NCBI GenBank assembly: GCA_017991415.1 | Contig: JAGOQR010000002.1 | Span: 17,026 to 81,025 of the forward strand | DNA: 64,000 bases | Direction of reading: 5' to 3' | From: Candidatus Magasanikiibacteriota bacterium | GTDB taxonomy: Bacteria > Patescibacteriota > Patescibacteriia > Magasanikbacterales > GWA2-37-8 | Part shown: one piece after another, positions 4,938-36,977 of the stretch | How the letters are laid out: each line of letters begins with the position of its first letter | How positions within the stretch are numbered: the stretch's first letter is position 1 | Position numbers and translations under genes: made by a program | The notes under the pieces: model-generated | The model's input: the letters and a program-made list of their open reading frames with translations, nothing else | Database searches by the model: none | What the model was told of the DNA's origin: nothing

Positions 4938-5123
4938 TATAGTAGACGTAGAAATAAGAATTATGTTACAGTTTTCGAAAATCACATTAATTTTCAACCA
5001 TTTCAATGGTTAACATGTTAGCAAAATAAAGGGCAGAAGTCAAATAGAGACCATAGAATTTAAAATGATTTTTGATGCTTCAAATTAATGCTCAGCTGCA
5101 AAAAAAGAAATTAAATTTTGTAT

Positions 5124-5159
5124 TTTTTATTTGTATACTCTAGTGTATACAAATAAAAA
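5124..5159. promoter_or_regulatory. perfect palindrome tttttatttgtatac-N6-gtatacaaataaaaa (operator-like) in the divergent sigma/HTH intergenic region
   Basis: 15-bp perfect inverted arms with a 6-bp spacer (tctagt), read directly from the sequence. Confidence 0.45.
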
Positions 5160-5200
5160 ATACGAGAAAAATCCTTGAGAACAAGAGCTTTACCCCTGTT

Positions 5201-5244
5201 TTTTACAGTATTTGTATACACTTGTGTATACAAATACTGTAAAA
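5201..5244. promoter_or_regulatory. second perfect palindrome ttttacagtatttgtatac-N6-gtatacaaatactgtaaaa, about 80 bp from the first, sharing the core ATTTGTATAC
   Basis: 19-bp perfect inverted arms with a 6-bp spacer (acttgt). Same 10-bp core as the first palindrome. Confidence 0.45.
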
Positions 5245-5373
5245 ATAAAATCATAAAAACAGAGATAACCGTCGTATTATTGACAAAAAACCAATTATTT
5301 GATATACTTGTCTAGATTAGTCTATACAAACACAAATTAAAATAGACTTACATAATCTTTTGATCTACTCCCT

Positions 5374-5718
5374 ATGGAACAAATTGTGCCACATGCCGAG
5401 CCTACAAAAGAAGTAATACGAGTTTCAATATCTGAAGCTGCGAAATTATTTGGCGTAAACTCACAAACTATTCGTAGAGCAATCGCCTCTAAGGAGGTCA
5501 TTTATATAGTGGTGGCTGGACGATATAAGCTCAATTTTGAAAGCCTTGTTAAATGGTCCCAGCGACACACCACTATAAAAAACAAGCTTGAAAAAAAAGG
5601 GATCGGTCAATTTATTGGTGATTGGAAAATTAAAAATCCGCTCTACTCCCCTAGCCCAAAAATTGTGCCTAGTAAAAAAACAGACGACTCACCAAGCACT
5701 TCTCCCGAAACTCTTTAA
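5374..5718 (+). CDS. small DNA-binding protein, excisionase/HTH_17-type helix-turn-helix
   Basis: VSISEAAKLFGVNSQTIRRAIASKEVIYIVVAGRYKLNFESLVKW matches the excisionase-family HTH pattern (target-Glu-Ala-Ala-x-Leu-x-Gly-Val-Ser...Ile-Arg-Arg). Divergent from the ECF sigma operon across the palindromes. Confidence 0.5.
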   Translation: MEQIVPHAEPTKEVIRVSISEAAKLFGVNSQTIRRAIASKEVIYIVVAGRYKLNFESLVKWSQRHTTIKNKLEKKGIGQFIGDWKIKNPLYSPSPKIVPSKKTDDSPSTSPETL

Positions 5719-5721
5719 ATC

Positions 5722-5749
5722 AAAAACCTCCTCTATTCGGGAGGTTTTT
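5722..5749 (+). terminator. rho-independent terminator (aaaaacctcc-tctattc-gggaggttttt)
   Basis: GC-containing stem flanked by an A-run and a T-run, directly after the stop of the 5374..5718 gene. Confidence 0.55.
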
Positions 5750-5818
5750 AATTTATTTATATAGTTGTAGAAAACGCATATACGATATATAATAACCCTG
5801 CAAAATACTAACAAAAAT

Positions 5819-7564
5819 ATGCTTAATTTTCTTAAAAATCACTATCACAAAAAATACCACGGCATGTATCAGCATGCAAAAAAACTCTTTGTTTTTGACC
5901 TTGCCCTACTATCTCTCGCTATTGTCATGATGATAAGTAGCGCAGTGTTATTTTTCTGGAAACCGAGCATTGCTGGTCTTATTAACATCTCTCTCTCTTT
6001 GGGCCAAGAACGAATACAAAGCGGTGACGCAGTCCGACTAACTATTGATTATACAAATAATAGCAAACAAAATTTGAAAGATGTATCCCTTGGACTGCGT
6101 TTACCAGAAGGTTTTATTATAGACCGCACCAAAACATCAAGCGATACCTTTTCTGAGCACTCTATCTTTACTGCAATAAAAGAATTAAAAGCTGGCGCTT
6201 CTGGACAATCAGAAATCTACGGTCAATTTTGGACAGAACCAAAAGCAGAAAAACATTTTATTGCCAACCTTTCGTACAGACCAGAAAATAAAAATAGTCG
6301 GGAACAAAAACTATCTTCTTTAATATCAACTATTTCTGACAGTATTCTGGTTGGCAAAATTACCATACTCACCTCTACTTTTTCAAATACACCTGTACAA
6401 TTCACGTACACCCTTCAAAACTTGAGCGACAACCAAATCAGCAATATCTCACTTACACACAACTTAAACAAAGGTGCTATTGCCGAAAAAGATCTATCCA
6501 ACATCTCTCTTTCACCAAACGGAATCAAAGTAATACAAGGGGGATTTACGAGCCCAGAAAAATCGGGCAAGTACACATACTCCATCACACCCCAGGTGCT
6601 AGCCAACAACCACCTTATTCCACAAGGCTCGCTCAATACCGAACTAAACATTATTTCACCACAAATAATCTCTGGTGCTCGCTTATTAGGCAATGTAGCA
6701 TTTGCAGAACCAGGGCAAGTATTGCCAGTAGAAATAAGATGGGAAAATACAAGTAACTTTAAACTCGAAAACCTGACGCTTCACATTACAACCAACCTCA
6801 CTGGAGCCATTGATTGGAAAAAAACTGCCCGAGAAAATGGAGCTACAGCCGAAAATAATGGAATATTTTTTGATAGCAAATCCAGAACTAGTCTTAGTAA
6901 CGGCTCTCCAAAAAATAGCGATACATTTACGGTAAATATATACCTACTTTCCACCCTGGGCTTACCTCAAACAGAGAACGCTAAACTAGAAATATACCCA
7001 ATAATGAAAGCAAGTGCCCCTGGAATAACTGATGCAACATTTAGCCAGGACGGCTCTCGCACATCCCTTCCACTCGCCACAGAAGTAAAATTTATCGACA
7101 CAGAGGCGCGCTATTACACAGCCGAAGGCGATCAGTTGGGCCGCGGAACTCTTCCACCTACTGTTGGCAAAAATACCAAATATTGGGTTTTTGTAAAAAT
7201 AGCCAACACCTCTAACGCTTTAGAGAACATTAGCTTTAACACTACATTACCCGAAGGTGTCGAATTGAGCGGCAAACAAAGCACTACTATTGGCCCTCAG
7301 CTGCTCTATAATGCTCTTAACCGCTCTATTTCTTGGCAATACTATACTTTGCCCGCAAACAGCCAAACCGGCCTTTATTTTGAAGTGTCAGTTACTCCTA
7401 ATCAGTCCCAGGTTGGAAAAAATATACAGCTTACTAACTCTCTTAATTTCTCGGCTACAGATGATTATGTTGGAAAAAAATTCAACATCTCCCACACCCC
7501 AATCTTCAACACGCTTAACAAAAACGACCGAGGCTCCAACCTCGGATCAAAGGTACTTCCTTAG
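5819..7564 (+). CDS. membrane-anchored protein with repeated DUF11/CARDB-like beta-sandwich repeats
   Basis: N-terminal TM segment (LFVFDLALLSLAIVMMISSAVLFFW). Recurring motifs of the type DAVRLTIDYTNNS...LPEGF and GQVLPVEIRWENTSN...LENLTLHITTNLTG. Asn/Ser/Thr-rich. Confidence 0.4.
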   Translation: MLNFLKNHYHKKYHGMYQHAKKLFVFDLALLSLAIVMMISSAVLFFWKPSIAGLINISLSLGQERIQSGDAVRLTIDYTNNSKQNLKDVSLGLRLPEGFIIDRTKTSSDTFSEHSIFTAIKELKAGASGQSEIYGQFWTEPKAEKHFIANLSYRPENKNSREQKLSSLISTISDSILVGKITILTSTFSNTPVQFTYTLQNLSDNQISNISLTHNLNKGAIAEKDLSNISLSPNGIKVIQGGFTSPEKSGKYTYSITPQVLANNHLIPQGSLNTELNIISPQIISGARLLGNVAFAEPGQVLPVEIRWENTSNFKLENLTLHITTNLTGAIDWKKTARENGATAENNGIFFDSKSRTSLSNGSPKNSDTFTVNIYLLSTLGLPQTENAKLEIYPIMKASAPGITDATFSQDGSRTSLPLATEVKFIDTEARYYTAEGDQLGRGTLPPTVGKNTKYWVFVKIANTSNALENISFNTTLPEGVELSGKQSTTIGPQLLYNALNRSISWQYYTLPANSQTGLYFEVSVTPNQSQVGKNIQLTNSLNFSATDDYVGKKFNISHTPIFNTLNKNDRGSNLGSKVLP

Positions 7565-8820: not shown

Positions 8821-8850
8821 TTGACAAAATTGCTATTTTATGGTTAAAAT
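8821..8850 (+). promoter_or_regulatory. sigma-70-like promoter TTGACA-N18-TAAAAT carrying the extended motif ATTTTATGGTTAAAAT
   Basis: ttgaca at 8821-8826 and taaaat at 8845-8850. Points toward the GC-rich lipoprotein gene. Confidence 0.35.
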
Positions 8851-8874: not shown

Positions 8875-8928
8875 AGAACTAGCAAGAATTTTGAGCACTA
8901 CACATTGCCCAAAATTCTCGCTAGTTCT
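8875..8928. repeat. long hairpin (18-bp arms agaactagcaagaatttt / aaaattctcgctagttct, one mismatch) with loop ...cactacacattgccc, at the left edge of GC-rich island 1
   Basis: Inverted repeat read directly. The loop shares the 9-mer acacattgc with the H3 hairpin loop at 25493-25554. Confidence 0.4.
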
Positions 8929-8987
8929 GGCAGCCTCGCCCGATATCCGGGAAAGGTTTTGTCTCCTACCGAGAGAGTGAGGATCAC

Positions 8988-9587
8988 ATGCGTACCACGC
9001 TCACGATCACGACGACCATGGCACTGCTGATGCTCATCCTGGGCTGCAGCTCCACCAACGTCAAGCGCGCAACCACCGCCAAGTCGGCCAAGGTGACCGC
9101 CACGACGAAGACGGAGTCCAAGGAGGCGAGGAAGAAGTCGAGCGACAAGAGCGCCGAGGTCAAGAAGAAGTCGAGCAGCAGCGGCACGGTCATCGGCTAC
9201 TCGACGAAGTCGGACTACATCGTGCGGGTCTCGGGACAGAAGAACCCCGAGGTCATCCAGTTCTTGCGGCGGCTGGAGAACCAGTGCAGCTGCCCCGACG
9301 ACCTGATCACCCAGCGCATCAAGCCCACGAAGACGACTGGCAACGACGTCAGTGCGTTCAAGCTGTCGCTCTCGCCAGGAATGGGGGCGCACATCGTCTT
9401 CCAGGTGATGGTCGACGACCCCAACAACAGCGAGAACAGGGTCTACCTAAGTGAGCAAGACTGGCCGTCAATCACAGCGTTTGACGGCACCATCGACTCC
9501 CTGCGAGAAGTCGGCGTGTGGAGGAGTGGCTCCTACGGCGGCAAGGGGCGGGGGCTGTTCAAGATCGAGGAGCTCATCGTCGAGTAG
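8988..9587 (+). CDS. lipoprotein of foreign (high-GC) origin, function unknown
   Basis: Lipobox LILGC after a hydrophobic signal peptide. Almost every codon ends in G or C (roughly 60% GC by eye) against a roughly 35% GC host. SD-like GAGG 7 nt upstream. Confidence 0.55.
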   Translation: MRTTLTITTTMALLMLILGCSSTNVKRATTAKSAKVTATTKTESKEARKKSSDKSAEVKKKSSSSGTVIGYSTKSDYIVRVSGQKNPEVIQFLRRLENQCSCPDDLITQRIKPTKTTGNDVSAFKLSLSPGMGAHIVFQVMVDDPNNSENRVYLSEQDWPSITAFDGTIDSLREVGVWRSGSYGGKGRGLFKIEELIVE

Positions 9588-9646
9588 AAGCGCGTGCTTC
9601 TGCAGGATGCCAGGAAGGGCAAGGACGCGGAGCCTTGTCCCGTGTT

Positions 9647-9682
9647 GTAACTATAATTTGTATATATACAAATTATAGTTAC
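9647..9682. repeat. 36-bp perfect palindrome gtaactataatttgtata|tatacaaattatagttac at the right edge of GC-rich island 1
   Basis: Perfect inverted repeat with no spacer. Half-site AATTTGTATA resembles the 5124-5244 palindromes. Confidence 0.5.
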
Positions 9683-9704
9683 CGGGATAAGGATACTAAA
9701 ATTT

Positions 9705-9737
9705 AAAACAGCCCCGATACTATCGGGGCTGTTTTAT
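9705..9737. terminator. bidirectional rho-independent terminator (aaaacagccccgata-c-tatcggggctgtttt)
   Basis: Perfect GC-rich stem with an A-run on one side and a T-run on the other. Lies between the lipoprotein gene (+) and the tRNA genes (-). Confidence 0.6.
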
Positions 9738-21098: not shown

Positions 21099-21317
21099 TT
21101 ATTTTAAATGTTTATTTAATATAGTAAGCAAGCTTTGCATCATTTTTTGAGGTACCAAAATCAGTTTACCGAAATGTTCTACTACCAAAAACTGATCTCC
21201 GTTTTTTAATTTTAATTTGCCACGAGCTTCTTTCGGAATAACAATCTGACCACGCTCTCCCAAAACAGTAGTGCCGTACACCTTAATACCATCTTTATCA
21301 AGAAAATCCTTTGCCAT
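21099..21317 (-). CDS. AbrB/MazE/SpoVT-family DNA-binding protein
   Basis: ERGQIVIPKEARGKLKLKNGDQFLV swapped-hairpin barrel motif. 4 bp upstream of the efflux operon. Confidence 0.5.
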   Translation of the reverse strand: MAKDFLDKDGIKVYGTTVLGERGQIVIPKEARGKLKLKNGDQFLVVEHFGKLILVPQKMMQSLLTILNKHLK

Positions 21318-22881: not shown

Positions 22882-23916
22882 TTATACTTTTTTATTGTTT
22901 CCTACTCGCCTATCAGCCACCTCTTGTTCGACCCAACCTTCTTTAACTAGTTTTTTAACAGAATTTTCCATGGTTTCCATACCGTCTTTAATACCTGTCT
23001 GAATAGAAGACTTAATTTGACCAACTTCATTATTACGAATTAAATTAGCCACTGCAGGAGTGTTAATTAGAATCTCTCGTGCTGGCACTCGACCACCATC
23101 TTTGGCTGGTAACAACTGTTGCGCTACTACCCCTCGTAGAACTGCAGATAGCTGGATAAGCACTTGTTTTTGTTTTGCACCTTCAAACACATCAACGATA
23201 CGCTCTACCGCTTCGGCAGCTGTAGGGGTATGTAAGGTAGAAAATACCAAGTGACCAGTTTCAGCAGCAGTAAGCACAGTAGCAATAGTTTCTGGATCAC
23301 GCATCTCACCCACAAAAATAACGTTAGGATCTTGACGCAACACATATTTAAGCGCATTAGCAAAAGAATTTGTATCTTTGCCAACTTCGCGTTGTTCAAT
23401 GAGACTTTTTTTATCTTGAAAAGCAAATTCTATAGGATCTTCAATGGTAATAACATGAGTTTTGCGTGTCTTATTTATCTCCTCAATCATAGAGGCAATG
23501 GTAGTAGTTTTTCCAGAACCAGTCGGGCCTGTAATCAAAACTAGACCATCAAGCAGTTTGGTCATTTCCATAAGTACAGGTTCGAAACGTAAATCTTCTG
23601 GACTTGGAATACTCGCTGGAATAACACGAGCGCTTAACCCTGCATTATCACTTTGCTGATGTAAATTAACTCTAAAACGAATATCGCCTACTCCGTAACT
23701 AATATCTAGTTCTTTCTCTGTCGCATATTTTACCTGCTGTTCTTTGGTTAGCAATTCATTAATCTCAGCAAGGAGCTCTTTATTACTGAGCGGCTTATCA
23801 TCCAAATCTTTGAGCTCTCCTTCTACGCGAATCATCGGCAATTCACCGCCAATTAAATGCAAATCTGAAGCATCCTGTTTAATAGCTTCTTTAAAATAAG
23901 AGTCTAGCTTGAGCAT
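22882..23916 (-). CDS. pilT: type IV pilus retraction ATPase PilT
   Basis: Walker A GPTGSGKTTT, Asp box, His box. About 344 aa, typical of PilT. Confidence 0.8.
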   Translation of the reverse strand: MLKLDSYFKEAIKQDASDLHLIGGELPMIRVEGELKDLDDKPLSNKELLAEINELLTKEQQVKYATEKELDISYGVGDIRFRVNLHQQSDNAGLSARVIPASIPSPEDLRFEPVLMEMTKLLDGLVLITGPTGSGKTTTIASMIEEINKTRKTHVITIEDPIEFAFQDKKSLIEQREVGKDTNSFANALKYVLRQDPNVIFVGEMRDPETIATVLTAAETGHLVFSTLHTPTAAEAVERIVDVFEGAKQKQVLIQLSAVLRGVVAQQLLPAKDGGRVPAREILINTPAVANLIRNNEVGQIKSSIQTGIKDGMETMENSVKKLVKEGWVEQEVADRRVGNNKKV

Positions 23917-24016: not shown

Positions 24017-24604
24017 TTAATTAAATATAACTTCCACTTCCCTATCTCCCGCTACCAATCGCACTAATCGTTCAATTTCTTTTTTTGTATTATCTTTAGC
24101 TTCACTTTGTACTGCATCGCTGTGCGCCGCTTCCAAAGCCGCTTCTTTGAGCTTGGCATACGCCGCATTGTATCCATCATCATTATTAAAAACCTTTTTT
24201 AAAAGTCCTTGTTTATTTTGCAAGGTAACATCTCCTATTAACTCTACACCATGATCTTCAAGAGCAGACACAGTTACCGAAACTTTGCGCACATCTACCT
24301 GAATATCTTCTGGCGAAAGCTTATTTAAATCTACCCCTAAACTGGCTTTCATAGTACCTATAGCTACAATATCTTGCCCCCAGAAAAAATCCTTAAACGA
24401 ACTTCCTGTAGAACGATCGATCTTTATCTGCTGTGTAATTATATATGTCTCAGTTACCAAAAACCCTTCATGCTTAAGCGCTTGCACAATAGATTGAGAA
24501 CTTATCTGCTCACCTGGTTTATTTGGTTTTCCTAGACGGTAACCCAACAAAACACCTCCCAGTAAAACAAACAGAACCCCAATAATAATTAATTTATTTT
24601 TCAT
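24017..24604 (-). CDS. membrane-anchored protein, DUF4230-like
   Basis: Start taken at the ATG at 24604 (MKNKLIIIGVLFVLLGG...). The track ORF extends to 24922 only by reading through the GC-rich insert. Confidence 0.45.
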   Translation of the reverse strand: MKNKLIIIGVLFVLLGGVLLGYRLGKPNKPGEQISSQSIVQALKHEGFLVTETYIITQQIKIDRSTGSSFKDFFWGQDIVAIGTMKASLGVDLNKLSPEDIQVDVRKVSVTVSALEDHGVELIGDVTLQNKQGLLKKVFNNDDGYNAAYAKLKEAALEAAHSDAVQSEAKDNTKKEIERLVRLVAGDREVEVIFN

Positions 24605-24664: not shown

Positions 24665-24690
24665 TTGCCAAGCAAATTTTATGGTAAAAA
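24665..24690 (+). promoter_or_regulatory. third copy of the ATTTTATGG(T)TAAAAT promoter-like motif (TTGCCA-N15-TAAAAA), immediately left of hairpin H2
   Basis: aaattttatggtaaaaat matches the 8835-8850 motif with one deleted base. The -35 and spacing are poor. Confidence 0.2.
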
Positions 24691-24696
24691 TTAAAC

Positions 24697-24758
24697 AAAA
24701 AGACCGCCTGCTCATTATTTTCCACACTATGAAAAATAATGAGCATAGAGGCGGTCTT
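24697..24758 (-). terminator. hairpin H2 (cassette-associated): aaaagaccgcctgctcattatttt / aaaataatgagc-ATAG-aggcggtctt, loop ccacactatg; acts as a rho-independent terminator for the minus-strand GC-rich gene
   Basis: About 22-bp stem with a 4-nt bulge. A run of T follows on the minus strand. Homologous to H3. Confidence 0.55.
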
Positions 24759-24827
24759 CTGGTTGAATCCGCATATGCCCCCTGTGCCAGGAAGGAAGCA
24801 AGGCGAATGAGTATAGGAGGGCGATGG

Positions 24828-25220
24828 TCAGTTCGCCCAGGAGAACGACTCGAACGGAAGCGCCGAAGCCATGACTCGCACCTGCGGAGCCTCACCGGTG
24901 CTCCGCGGCTCGATCCAGTCACGGCTGCGACGCACCTTCTTGCGCGTCGGCCCCACCACTGCAGCCATCGGAATCTTCTTGAAGATCTCGATCACGCCGG
25001 TGGGCTTCTCCCCCTTGCAGATCTTGTTGATCCGCATCCAGAGCGGCTCGGTCAGCAGCTCCGACTTGTCGAACGCGCAGACCGTGCCAGAACCACCTGC
25101 ATCATGCCTCACGTGCGGACGAGGCCGCTCGCTCGTGGCGAGCGGTCCCTTGACGTAGCGGCAGACCGTCCCATCGGGACGCTTCTGAACCAACACGAAC
25201 ACAAACAGTTGCTTGCTCAT
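24828..25220 (-). CDS. small protein (130 aa) of foreign high-GC origin, function unknown
   Basis: ATG at 25220 with GAGAGG 7 nt upstream (MSKQLFVFVLVQKRPDGTV...). Third codon positions are almost all G/C. The opposite-strand ORF is Arg-rich antisense noise. Confidence 0.5.
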   Translation of the reverse strand: MSKQLFVFVLVQKRPDGTVCRYVKGPLATSERPRPHVRHDAGGSGTVCAFDKSELLTEPLWMRINKICKGEKPTGVIEIFKKIPMAAVVGPTRKKVRRSRDWIEPRSTGEAPQVRVMASALPFESFSWAN

Positions 25221-25452
25221 CGGAACGCACCTCTCATGATTGCCGAGAAAAGAAACCTCACATTTTGGCTGCGAAAAGCTCAGGTAGAGCATCTTGGAAA
25301 CAGTCACCCCCCGTGACTGCTCCTACTTTTCACATGAAAATGCCAAACTGCAAACTGTATACTTAATGTAAAAATATACACTATGCAAGTTAGCATTATT
25401 CAAGTAAAGATAGGCCAAACGTAAATAACAAAAAAATTAAAAGAACTACAAG

Positions 25453-25481
25453 ATTATAGCCATAAAATACTCAAATGTCAA
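25453..25481 (-). promoter_or_regulatory. perfect consensus sigma-70 promoter TTGACA-N17-TATAAT on the minus strand, carrying ATTTTATGGCTATAAT
   Basis: tgtcaa at 25476-25481 and attata at 25453-25458 (plus coordinates), spacer exactly 17. Directed at the GC-rich gene starting at 25220. Confidence 0.5.
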
Positions 25482-25492
25482 TATAAATTAAA

Positions 25493-25554
25493 AAAAGACC
25501 GCCTGTTTATTATTTTCACACATTGCATAAAAACAATAAACATAAGGCGGCCTT
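25493..25554 (-). terminator. hairpin H3 (cassette-associated): aaaaagaccgcctgtttattatttt / aaaacaataaac-ATA-aggcggcctt, loop cacacattgcat; terminator of the second GC-rich gene
   Basis: Homologous to H2, with compensatory stem changes (gctc/gagc versus gttt/aaac) and the same bulge position. A T-run follows on the minus strand. Confidence 0.55.
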
Positions 25555-25589
25555 CTTCGTGCGCCGCGGACACCCTGCTCCCCGAGGAG

Positions 25590-25841
25590 CTAGAGTGCCG
25601 AAGGACGGAGATCGCTGAAGTCGCAGATCAGCGTCTGCGCACCAGGGAACAGAGGAACATGACCACGGTGTGGTGAGACGTTGGCATCTCGCATCAGTTT
25701 GATGAAGGCCGAGAGGTTCGCATGTCGATCTGGAGTGGCGACAGGCACCTTTTCGAACGGAAAGAAGGCTTGGAACACCTCCACATCGCCATCCTGACGA
25801 CCAACCTTCACGATACAGTGAACTCGCAGAGTCTTCTTCAT
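25590..25841 (-). CDS. small protein (83 aa) in GC-rich island 3, function unknown
   Basis: ATG at 25841 (MKKTLRVHCIVKVGRQDGDVEV...); an alternative GTG start lies at 25883. GC-rich codon third positions. Weak N-terminal resemblance to the 24828..25220 product. Confidence 0.35.
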   Translation of the reverse strand: MKKTLRVHCIVKVGRQDGDVEVFQAFFPFEKVPVATPDRHANLSAFIKLMRDANVSPHRGHVPLFPGAQTLICDFSDLRPSAL

Positions 25842-26042
25842 AGGAGGCCTTGGAAACCCTTGAGAGAACGTTGCACAACGCACAGAAGTCCTGAATGGAA
25901 ACCATACAATGGCTACGAAAAGTCGCTTATGCGACCTCTCACTTCTGTCTTATAGGCATTGCTAATTTGCATACTCCTCACCTCGTACAGAGATGGTAAA
26001 TATGCAAATTAACAAACGCGATTATTTGAAAGAACTTGCAGC

Positions 26043-26071
26043 AGTATACACACAAAAAACACGTCTGTCAA
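26043..26071 (-). promoter_or_regulatory. sigma-70-like promoter TTGACA-N17-TATACT on the minus strand, upstream of the island-3 gene
   Basis: tgtcaa at 26066-26071 and agtata at 26043-26048 (plus coordinates), spacer 17. Confidence 0.4.
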
Positions 26072-26106: not shown

Positions 26107-27189
26107 TTAAAGTTCTAAAAGTGTATTTTCTCCTAAAATCATCTTTTGCTCACTTGACTTACTTTGCATAACAGTTACGCCCGAACCAATAATACTACCT
26201 GCAATCTTAACATTGGCACTTATATGACATTTATTGAGAATAATAGAGTCGCTAATTTGAGCATTTTTAATAGTACTCCCCGCACCAATAGTAGTGTTAG
26301 GATAAATAACACAATCCTCGAGAGTGCAGTTTTCAGCAATAAGGACTGGGCCTGTGATTTTTACATTTTTATTTACTGTGGTGCCAATACCAATCCGCAC
26401 CTTACCCTCTATGTACGCGCCAGGCTCAACAATACCTTCTACCTTAAAATTTTCTGGAATAATTTCTTTAAGCAAAAGCTCGCTCGCTAAAATTAAATCC
26501 TCTGGTTTGCCCGTATCCTTCCACCAACCCGTAATTTCTTTATACCCAACACGTAATTTATTTTTCAAAAAATCGGAGTGTATGCTCGATATTTCGTATT
26601 CTCCCCTATCACTTTTAGCAATATTATCGAATGCGTTAAAAAAAACTTTCGGACCATATAAATAAATACCTGTAACTGCAAAATCGTTGGGCGGCACCTT
26701 CGGTTTCTCCACCACGTCTATCAACTTTCCTTGATCATCTAAAACTGGCACACCAAATCGTTCTGGATCTGGTACTTTGGACAAAGCAAGCATACAATCA
26801 TAATTACCATGGGAAAATTCATCAATAAAAGTATCCAAGCTACCCAAAATAACATTATCTGATAAATAAAACAAAAACGGATCATTCCCAATAAATTTTT
26901 CGGCCTGTTTAACTACATGGGCAATGCCTTGTGGGCCACCCTCTTGCTCAAAGAAAGTGATATTGACTCCCCAATGCCCTCCATCACCAATATATTTTTG
27001 TAACTCTGTATCACCTGGATTAGTGTTTATAAAAATATCAGTCACACCCGCAGCTACCACTTTTTCAATAGCATGAAAAATCATTGGCTTATTGGCCAAC
27101 GGAATTAAATGTTTATTCATGGTAGAGGTAACTGGGCGTAACCGTGTTGCTCTTCCCCCTCCCGTTAAAATAGCTTTTTTAATTTTCAT
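26107..27189 (-). CDS. sugar-phosphate nucleotidyltransferase (glucose-1-phosphate thymidylyltransferase-like) with C-terminal left-handed beta-helix domain
   Basis: N-terminal GGGRATRLRP G-loop. Hexapeptide repeats in the C-terminal third. Confidence 0.6.
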   Translation of the reverse strand: MKIKKAILTGGGRATRLRPVTSTMNKHLIPLANKPMIFHAIEKVVAAGVTDIFINTNPGDTELQKYIGDGGHWGVNITFFEQEGGPQGIAHVVKQAEKFIGNDPFLFYLSDNVILGSLDTFIDEFSHGNYDCMLALSKVPDPERFGVPVLDDQGKLIDVVEKPKVPPNDFAVTGIYLYGPKVFFNAFDNIAKSDRGEYEISSIHSDFLKNKLRVGYKEITGWWKDTGKPEDLILASELLLKEIIPENFKVEGIVEPGAYIEGKVRIGIGTTVNKNVKITGPVLIAENCTLEDCVIYPNTTIGAGSTIKNAQISDSIILNKCHISANVKIAGSIIGSGVTVMQSKSSEQKMILGENTLLEL

Positions 27190-35753: not shown

Positions 35754-36032
35754 ATGTCTCATAAAAAAGCGGGTGGCTCCACTCGGTTGGGTCGCGATTC
35801 TGCCGCTCAACGCTTAGGTGTTAAACTTCACGATGGTGAAGTAGTTAAAAAAGGAATGATTATCATTCGCCAAAGAGGCACTAAATTCCACCCTGGAAAA
35901 AATGTCAAAAAAGGCGGAGATGACACAATTTTTGCTATGGCAAACGGTAAGGTGAAATTCACCCAACATAAAAGACGTCGTTTTGACGGCACTATGAAAA
36001 TGTTCAAATTTGTTCACGTTGTCACAGAATAA
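35754..36032 (+). CDS. rpmA: 50S ribosomal protein L27
   Basis: [24 protein letters not shown] is the canonical L27 N-terminus. Confidence 0.9.
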
Positions 36033-36039
36033 TAACACT

Positions 36040-36076
36040 AAAACAAAAAACCTCCTGCTAACAGGAGGTTTTTTGT
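36040..36076. terminator. bidirectional rho-independent terminator (aaaaaacctcctg-ttagc-aggaggttttttg)
   Basis: Perfect stem with A/T runs on both sides, between the convergent rpmA gene and the epimerase gene. Confidence 0.6.
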
Positions 36077-36083
36077 TTTAGTG

Positions 36084-36977
36084 TTATTTCTTAAGCTGTA
36101 ACAAACCTTCTTGAAGCGTAACGGTTGGCTCCCAACCCAGCACACTCTTTGCTAAACTTCTATCCGCTTCAATAAAACGCATCTCCCCAAAACGCGGATC
36201 AATATTAACAGTTTCACCTCCAATTAAAGCAGCTATTTCATTAACGCTTGTTTGCTTGCCTGATCCAATATTAATTGGAGCACCACTATTAATTATATTT
36301 TGATTCCAAGCTAAAATATTTGCTCGCACAACATCCGAAACATGCACATAATCACGAGTACTTTTACCATCTCCTACTATGGTTAATTTCTGTCCTTTTT
36401 TCTGCTGCTCCAAAAAAATTGGAATGACCATAGGGTAAGAACCTGTAGCCAATTTCCGCGGCCCAAAAACATTAAAATAACGAAGGCAAACGGTTGATAA
36501 ATTATACAACGAAGAAAATAAACGGCAATATTCTTCTCCCATCAACTTATGGAGACCGTATGGACTGAGCGGTCTGGTAATAAAAGATTCTTGAATTGGC
36601 AGCACCTTTTGCTCGCCATAGGTGGCGCACGAAGAAGAAAAAACTACTTTTTTAACGTTATTTTCCTTGGCGGCCAACAACACATTAAGCGTTCCTGTTA
36701 CATTAATTTCATGCGTAGTAGCTGGATCCTCAACAGACACTTGCAATCGCGGATCTGCCGCCAAATGGAATACTGCTTCAACGCCTTTAAAAATTTTACT
36801 GATTTTTTTATAATCACGTATATCTGCCTTATAAAACTTTGCTTTTTTATTAATAAATTCTTTTTTTCCAAGCATTAAATTGTCAACTACAAACACCTCA
36901 TGACCAAGAGCCACCAAAGCGTCAGTGAGGTGGGAACCAATAAATCCCGCACCTCCCGTAACAACTAACTTAGACAT
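36084..36977 (-). CDS. NAD-dependent sugar epimerase (UDP-glucose 4-epimerase-like, short form)
   Basis: VVTGGAGFIGSH Rossmann motif; YxxxK (YGLHK). Confidence 0.55.
   Translation of the reverse strand: MSKLVVTGGAGFIGSHLTDALVALGHEVFVVDNLMLGKKEFINKKAKFYKADIRDYKKISKIFKGVEAVFHLAADPRLQVSVEDPATTHEINVTGTLNVLLAAKENNVKKVVFSSSCATYGEQKVLPIQESFITRPLSPYGLHKLMGEEYCRLFSSLYNLSTVCLRYFNVFGPRKLATGSYPMVIPIFLEQQKKGQKLTIVGDGKSTRDYVHVSDVVRANILAWNQNIINSGAPINIGSGKQTSVNEIAALIGGETVNIDPRFGEMRFIEADRSLAKSVLGWEPTVTLQEGLLQLKK

Follow-up and report, generated by a model that had tools for sequence, protein, structure and literature searches.

We analysed a window of 64,000 nt from the genome of a Candidatus Magasanikbacteria (Patescibacteria) strain (GCA_017991415.1, contig JAGOQR010000002.1, positions 17,026-81,025 of the forward strand), in which two long hairpins, H2 and H3, follow two small orphan genes, gene A and gene B, respectively, on the minus strand. 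We conclude that the pairing in H2 and H3 is maintained by selection, and that the two hairpins are probably compound Rho-independent terminators that represent paralogous copies of one 76-nt module in minus-strand RNA. A first-pass annotation of this DNA had likewise seen a selected secondary structure here; it had gone on to describe the hairpins as not just a terminator and, tentatively, as integron attC sites, and on these two points our analysis leads elsewhere. Positions are in window numbering unless another locus is named, and the features are collected in Table 1. The comparisons below use the same locus from a sister strain, recovered as L001 and L002 (Logan ERR7336230 and ERR7337951).

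Both hairpins are built in two tiers, an outer and an inner stem that add up to 26-31 bp, with a bulge of 3-4 nt between them on the 5′ arm. The unpaired bases form one contiguous bulge, both stems are otherwise continuous, and there is no unpaired central spacer. The position of the bulge is identical in both copies and both strains, in agreement with the first-pass annotation, which had reported an unpaired ATA(G) at the same place in each copy. On the sense strand, G+C pairs lie at the base of the stem (outer stem GACCGCC / GGCGGUC), and this base is followed directly by UUUUUGUUU at H2 and UUUUUUU at H3 (U5GU3 or U7), with both tracts kept in the sister strain. The T-runs that had been noted after both hairpins on the minus strand are present as described, in agreement with the minus-strand terminators predicted from them. 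As minus-strand RNA, none of 200 shuffles folds as well as H2 or H3 (z of -9.3 and -7.7).

Local alignment confines the similarity of H2 and H3 to the 76-nt module (24685-24760 vs 25482-25556), which consists of the hairpin, the T-run and TTTAATTT and has its start exactly at the end of the GC-rich DNA. Outside the two modules no significant similarity remains, and genes A and B have no detectable relationship to each other. As paralogous copies of this module, H2 and H3 have inherited their common arms and bulge position and did not acquire them by convergence, and we infer that the two copies arose by local duplication. The arms are present in the sequence as they had been quoted, and the inner stems, which read GCTC/GAGC in H2 and GTTT/AAAC in H3, are separated by two double changes from C-G to U-A, which confirms the paired C-to-T and G-to-A substitutions reported earlier. 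When H2 and H3 of this strain were aligned with their sister-strain orthologues, the stems still covaried in the four copies: 97.3% of the pair cells are standard pairs, six pairs have changed on both sides, and the observed covariation score was reached by no column shuffle. In the same alignment, the wobble cells of the gene-sense strand, which come from about six independent sites, are G.U in 15 cases and A.C in 0; read on the other strand, the G.U positions turn into A.C mismatches. Since G.U is found only on the sense strand, selection appears to act on the RNA transcript. Folding of both strands, which the first-pass annotation had proposed as a check, gave the same direction, with the sense (minus) strand the better folder in four of four copies for RNA and DNA alike, and with the plus strand still able to fold. 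For H3, the minus and plus strands gave -34.9 vs -15.0 kcal/mol as RNA and -14.9 vs -11.6 kcal/mol with DNA parameters. Compensatory change is what is expected of a terminator stem and so is no argument against a terminator; together with a bulge shared by descent and a wobble bias of RNA sense, it leaves the phrase "not just a terminator" without its footing. The CACAC noted in both loops does occur in this strain, but it is absent in the sister strain L001, so this loop motif is not conserved.

In the reading we favour, each module would close a transcription unit of one gene, a horizontally acquired high-GC orphan that is preceded by a consensus sigma-70 promoter and a long leader with structure and followed by the hairpin and U-tract. 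The clade's usual terminator would correspond to the outer stem and U-tract, with the AT-rich inner stem as an extension at the loop position; the two tiers would meet at the 3-4 nt left unpaired on the 5′ arm, a feature inherited by both copies. A covariance model built from the four copies, termed R1, gives 85 bits for H2 in minus-strand and 47 bits in plus-strand orientation, and 94 and 33 bits, respectively, for H3. Its best matches in a related set of 57 Magasanikbacteria pilT loci (648 kb) reach 16-24 bits and cover the outer stem and T-run only; these are ordinary short terminators, for example AAAAAACCGCC, a 5-nt loop and GGCGGTTTTTT. As R1 recognizes the short terminators of the clade through the outer stem and T-run, H2 and H3 may be read as the clade's normal terminator with a stem of 16-17 bp added to it. 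The placement also fits a terminator, with H2 starting 67 nt past the stop codon of gene A and being followed by the DUF4230 gene, and H3 starting 31 nt past the stop codon of gene B and being followed by a promoter that matches 12 of 12 consensus positions. Long 3′ hairpins are normal in this genome, as the native genes rpmA (36031-36088, 27 bp perfect, -41 kcal/mol) and DUF5667 (2932-2987, sense-biased, -33.8 vs -23.8 kcal/mol) have them. Like intrinsic terminators, H2 and H3 have a G+C-containing basal stem followed by a U-tract, lie just past a stop codon on the coding strand, keep their pairing through compensatory and G.U changes, and have an outer stem that nearly equals the short terminators of relatives. 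Typical terminator stems are 5-14 bp long, unlike the two tiers of H2 and H3, with their bulge and their AT-rich hairpin of 16-17 bp at the loop position. Several points weigh against our preferred reading. A bulged stem of 26-31 bp exceeds what a terminator needs; an exact RYYYAAC motif lies at the 5′ foot of H2; and that transcription actually stops at H2 and H3 is something we infer from their sequence. In addition, two other foreign genes have a bulged hairpin that is separate from a canonical terminator, in one case without a U-run, so the inner hairpin may have a role of its own.

No wider family of the module was found. With R1, H2 and H3 were the only copies in the window (the next match scored 23 bits), and there was no further copy in about 16 kb of flanks (7 kb and 9.4 kb, which bring the DNA examined to about 80 kb) or in the 57 related loci, so the scan for more copies that the first-pass annotation had envisaged came back empty. 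A pattern for the outer stem (GAAGRCCGCCT, N30-60, AGGCGGTCTTTT) had 0 matches in the GTDB representative genomes and 0 in IMG/VR. Its single match in JGI metagenome contigs (L004) lies inside coding sequence and was rejected as a chance match. Rfam returned just two tRNAs at gathering scores and, at E up to 1, only generic hairpins resembling miRNA precursors, far below threshold.

H2 and H3 lie in a wider setting of GC-rich islands. Three islands of 54-58% GC occur in the window (~8929-9648, 24761-25335 and 25559-25950), and a fourth, of 61% GC, lies 1.5 kb past the window end (L089 7262-7900), in a genome of about 37% GC where the minus strand carries nearly all genes. Each island holds one small gene, and at least two strains have these islands in common. 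To judge from their sequences, the four high-GC genes are horizontally acquired and expressed from native-looking signals. The fourth is a xenologue, homologous to the adjoining native NUDIX gene (29% identity, E 6e-19). Gene A (G+C fraction at third codon positions, GC3, 0.81) is identical to the protein that NCBI names KBC69_02630, and its only relative is the sister-strain orthologue, with 74% protein identity, a ratio of nonsynonymous to synonymous substitution (dN/dS) of 0.64 and three indels that are all in frame. Gene A, gene B and the lipoprotein gene of the first island gave only strain-level orthologues in a word-indexed search of 5.8 billion proteins. A full HMMER search of 1.8 billion representatives for the foreign genes returned only tandem-repeat translations, which we rejected as spurious; these genes have no Pfam matches and no viral relatives, and the AlphaFold model of the lipoprotein was unusable (predicted local distance difference test score, pLDDT, of 33). 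A literature search found nothing on high-GC islands of this type. At the syntenic spot, the closest species-level genome (L005) is without the DUF4230 gene, gene A and gene B and has an unrelated 92-aa open reading frame (ORF) on the opposite strand (5505-6000), so that no clean empty site can be defined.

Each of the four foreign genes in the ~80 kb has a strong native promoter (at least 11/12 to the sigma-70 consensus in three of four), a leader hairpin at the island boundary and a bulged 3′ hairpin. Six sites in the 64 kb match at least 11/12 of this consensus; half of them drive the three GC-rich genes of the window, and another drives rpmA. The 80-nt leader hairpin of gene A is kept in L001 (-33.8 kcal/mol), and this leader has no Rfam family match. 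The order of the units and their U-tracts are the same in the sister strain despite the gene A identity of only 74%. As for the 3′ ends, four of four foreign genes finish in an AT-rich hairpin of 16-18 bp whose 5′ arm has a bulge of 3-4 nt; at H2 and H3 this hairpin lies within the terminator stem. The hairpins of islands 1 and 4 match H2 and H3 in architecture, not in sequence, and an alignment of the four 3′ ends gave no convincing common sequence. GATYCAAC, found directly 5′ of H2 and of the island 4 hairpin (H4), was rejected as a shared motif, as this 8-mer occurs at chance rate in the window. The recurrence of the bulged hairpin may itself be chance, as only 3 bp make up the outer stem in island 1 and H2 and H3 together represent a single event.

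We also made some observations on the leaders. The gene A leader (25222-25452, ~220 nt) is ~95% identical between strains vs 82% for the coding sequence. Over 25321-25605, a further contig, L003 (Logan SRR28520274), is a clean mosaic, of the window type in genes B and A and of the sister-strain type over 24 consecutive informative sites spanning H3, the promoter and the AT-rich leader; it reflects either inter-strain recombination or an assembly chimera. The left edge of island 1 coincides exactly with a 23-bp hairpin in the leader of the lipoprotein gene, H1 (8875-8928). In the present strain its antisense strand is the better folder; in the sister strain (L085), where H1 has drifted, its sense strand is. 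H1 was rejected as a member of the H2/H3 family, with 10.6 bits under R1 and a stem that drifted in the sister strain.

An account of H2 and H3 as folded single-strand DNA recombination sites, of attC type or an analogue, would make the units mobile cassettes inserted by a site-specific recombinase. The layout invites the comparison: small ORFs of unknown function, no known family and foreign composition are each followed by an imperfect hairpin of 60-70 nt, repeated in tandem at a distance of 795 bp, and on the strand opposite the ORFs the bases left unpaired belong to the 3′ arm, which is also their place in attC bottom strands. One copy even has a box resembling RYYYAAC: H2 is flanked by ATTCAAC (an exact RYYYAAC) and GTTTAAT (one mismatch to GTTRRRY). 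GTTGAAT is where it had been placed, at 24762-24768, and ATTAAAC is present to the left of H2, at 24690-24696, one base from its reported coordinates. H3, however, has neither RYYYAAC nor a GTTRRRY core, as had already been conceded, and the R′-like box of H2 reads GTTTTTT in L001, so there are no conserved R″/R′ cores. The conserved bulge had been taken as a recombinase recognition feature; it is a single contiguous run of 3-4 nt instead of separate extrahelical bases, and the unpaired central spacer is missing. The would-be recombining strand is the poorer folder, with all wobble pairs favouring the RNA-sense strand. No Phage_integrase, recombinase or transposase domain was found in window ORFs of at least 100 aa or in flank genes (~80 kb; the rest of the genome was not searched), so the suggested search for a tyrosine recombinase found none nearby. 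The two copies stand alone against the 57 related loci, the GTDB representatives, the JGI metagenome contigs and IMG/VR; each unit comes with a consensus promoter of its own, which sets it apart from typical integron cassettes; and the order of the units is identical in both strains. With the missing cores, the form of the bulge, the lack of a recombinase and of further copies, and the separate promoters, we rate an attC origin as extremely improbable, and the literature offered nothing on integrons in this phylum relevant to H2 and H3. Repetitive extragenic palindromic (REP) sequences and miniature inverted-repeat transposable elements (MITEs) resemble H2 and H3 in being intergenic, imperfectly palindromic and present more than once, but H2 and H3 are two adjacent copies only, and a dispersed family was found neither in 80 kb of this genome nor in the related loci (648 kb) or the three public collections.

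By analogy with the early-gene hairpins of phage T7, H2 and H3 might also, or instead, serve as double-stranded RNA (dsRNA) processing or stability signals of RNase III type, a reading at the RNA level that we regard as unlikely. The early genes of T7 are separated by bulged RNase III hairpins. These are similar in having ~20-30 bp of dsRNA with an asymmetric unpaired region between separately expressed genes, and H2 and H3 are of the dsRNA length of RNase III sites (~20 bp or more, often with an internal unpaired region); they differ in that H2 and H3 have a U-tract and look like complete terminators, and in that their unpaired region is one-sided. If the RNA were cut at the bulge or close to it, the foreign mRNA would retain a 3′ hairpin as protection, an outcome compatible with termination. 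The two-tier architecture (a lower stem of 10-14 bp, a one-sided bulge of 3-4 nt and an upper stem of 16-17 bp) suits such a signal, and so does its return in unrelated sequence at the fourth foreign gene, where H4 has no U-run and precedes a separate terminator. A weaker version is seen at island 1 (9640-9685), and the leaders of genes A and B also have long sense-biased hairpins. On the other hand, the bulge sequences differ (CUAU, UAU, UAA, ACCU and UGUU), the bulge of H2 and H3 is common by descent, so that H4 is a single independent case whose recurrence could be chance, and the long hairpins of native units have no such bulge. DNA-level palindromes that mark or caused foreign insertion, through breakage and fold-back repair capturing high-GC fragments with AT-rich palindromes at the junctions, would account for a switch from GC-rich to AT-rich sequence that falls, at either end of four of four islands, on the base of a long hairpin (H1 with 9647-9682; the leader hairpin with H2; 25959-26015 with H3; and the leader hairpin with H4 in L089), as well as for a similarity of H2 and H3 that ends exactly at the GC-rich boundary. 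We consider this highly unlikely, as the G.U bias of the sense strand speaks for selection at the RNA level, the sister-strain H1 has kept its sense-strand stability despite drift, native units have similar hairpins, and no repair signature or target duplication was seen. Intergenic spacers are also short here, so a foreign fragment that lands before a terminator abuts it anyway. We likewise doubt that the bulged hairpin is a distinct, structure-defined signal for domesticating or capturing foreign genes, whether by RNA processing and stabilisation or as the footprint of hairpin-directed insertion. Termination by a compound hairpin stays our preferred reading of H2 and H3.

Table 1. Coordinates of H2, H3 and associated features (window numbering unless L089 is named; energies in kcal/mol)
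Feature	Position	Strand	Remarks
H2, compound hairpin	24698-24760	minus (sense RNA)	fold -39.4, z -9.3
H2 outer stem, 12 bp (AGAAGACCGCCU / AGGCGGUCUUUU)	24698-24709 / 24749-24760	minus	
H2 bulge, 4 nt on 5′ arm, CUAU (plus-strand ATAG)	24745-24748		
H2 inner stem, 16 bp, AT-rich; 3-nt loop	24710-24725 / 24729-24744		
H2 3′ U-rich tract (UUUUUGUUUAAUUUU on minus strand)	24685-24697	minus	tail of the 76-nt module common with H3
H3, paralogous compound hairpin	25491-25558	minus	fold -34.9, z -7.7
H3 outer stem, 14 bp	25491-25504 / 25545-25558	minus	
H3 bulge, 3 nt on 5′ arm, UAU (plus-strand ATA)	25542-25544		
H3 inner stem, 17 bp; 3-nt loop	25505-25521 / 25525-25541		
H3 U-tract, seven U then AAUUU	25482-25490	minus	directly 3′ of H3; continues into the -35 box of the promoter that follows
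Gene A, 130-aa orphan ORF	24828-25220	minus	in GC-rich island ~24761-25335 (58% GC)
Gene A promoter, TTGACA-17-TATAAT (12/12 sigma-70)	25453-25481	minus	immediately after H3 U-tract; conserved in L001 and L003
Gene A leader, long imperfect hairpin	25328-25409	minus	at AT-rich/GC-rich boundary; -35.6 sense vs -20.8 antisense
Gene B, 83-aa orphan ORF	25590-25841	minus	in second GC-rich island ~25559-25950
Gene B promoter, TTGACA-17-TATACT (11/12)	26043-26071	minus	
Gene B leader, long hairpin	25959-26015	minus	-31.1 sense vs -18.7 antisense
Native DUF4230 gene	24017-24604	minus	next gene downstream of H2
Island 1 lipoprotein, 199 aa	ORF 8988-9587	plus	GC3 0.92
Island 1 lipoprotein gene promoter, at least 11/12	8821-8850	plus	
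Island 1 bulged hairpin: CCG, UGUU, 16-bp stem, CGG	9640-9685 (palindrome 9647-9682)		before separate terminator 9704-9736
Island 4 bulged hairpin H4: 10-bp outer stem, ACCU, ~16-bp stem	L089 7901-7961		no U-run; before terminator L089 7969-8002
rpmA with near-consensus promoter	35754-36032		

By themselves, H2 and H3 change little and are an ordinary feature. They do provide a clear case of a duplicated terminator with compensatory stem evolution, and they illustrate that an RNA signal can be told from a DNA site by the strand that G.U pairs favour. More is to be gained from the context, an episymbiont-type genome of 37% GC with several orphan genes of 58-61% GC, common to at least two strains, each of which has a promoter close to consensus and a terminator of very high stability. 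Should the bulged hairpin that recurs at their 3′ ends have a function of its own, it would indicate a route by which bacteria with small genomes use foreign genes.

The H2/H3 locus sits between an NTP-transferase gene (26107-27189) and the DUF4230 gene, which is followed by pilT (22882-23916). Parts of the window are 100% identical to contig JAHZTO010000001.1 (831 kb) of GCA_020049755.1 and to Logan contigs of SRR11088469. Across all window ORFs of at least 100 aa, Pfam finds housekeeping, transport and pilus functions and a large glycosylation cluster; the last, a very large cell-surface cluster of glycosyltransferase and sugar-nucleotide genes that all read in one direction, takes up ~38 kb (26107-63953). 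Between the genes for a membrane-fusion protein and the CCA-adding enzyme is a small MazE/AbrB-type antitoxin-like gene (21099-21317, minus strand), with no obvious toxin partner adjoining it. The region upstream of pilT is a variable spot throughout the clade, with several genomes having GC-rich islands of their own, for example L038 4506-5300 with a 245-aa ORF. In two other Magasanikbacteria (L026 5384-5666 and L038 5472-5725), direct repeats of 64-73 nt, made up of a terminator and a tRNA 3′ end, bracket a conserved GC-rich segment of ~140 nt beside tRNA genes upstream of pilT, an arrangement that resembles the footprint of integration at a tRNA gene. Finally, three perfect or near-perfect palindromes (5120-5163, 5200-5245 and 9647-9682) have the common core TTTGTATAC / GTATACAAA and resemble back-to-back extended -10 boxes or a common operator.

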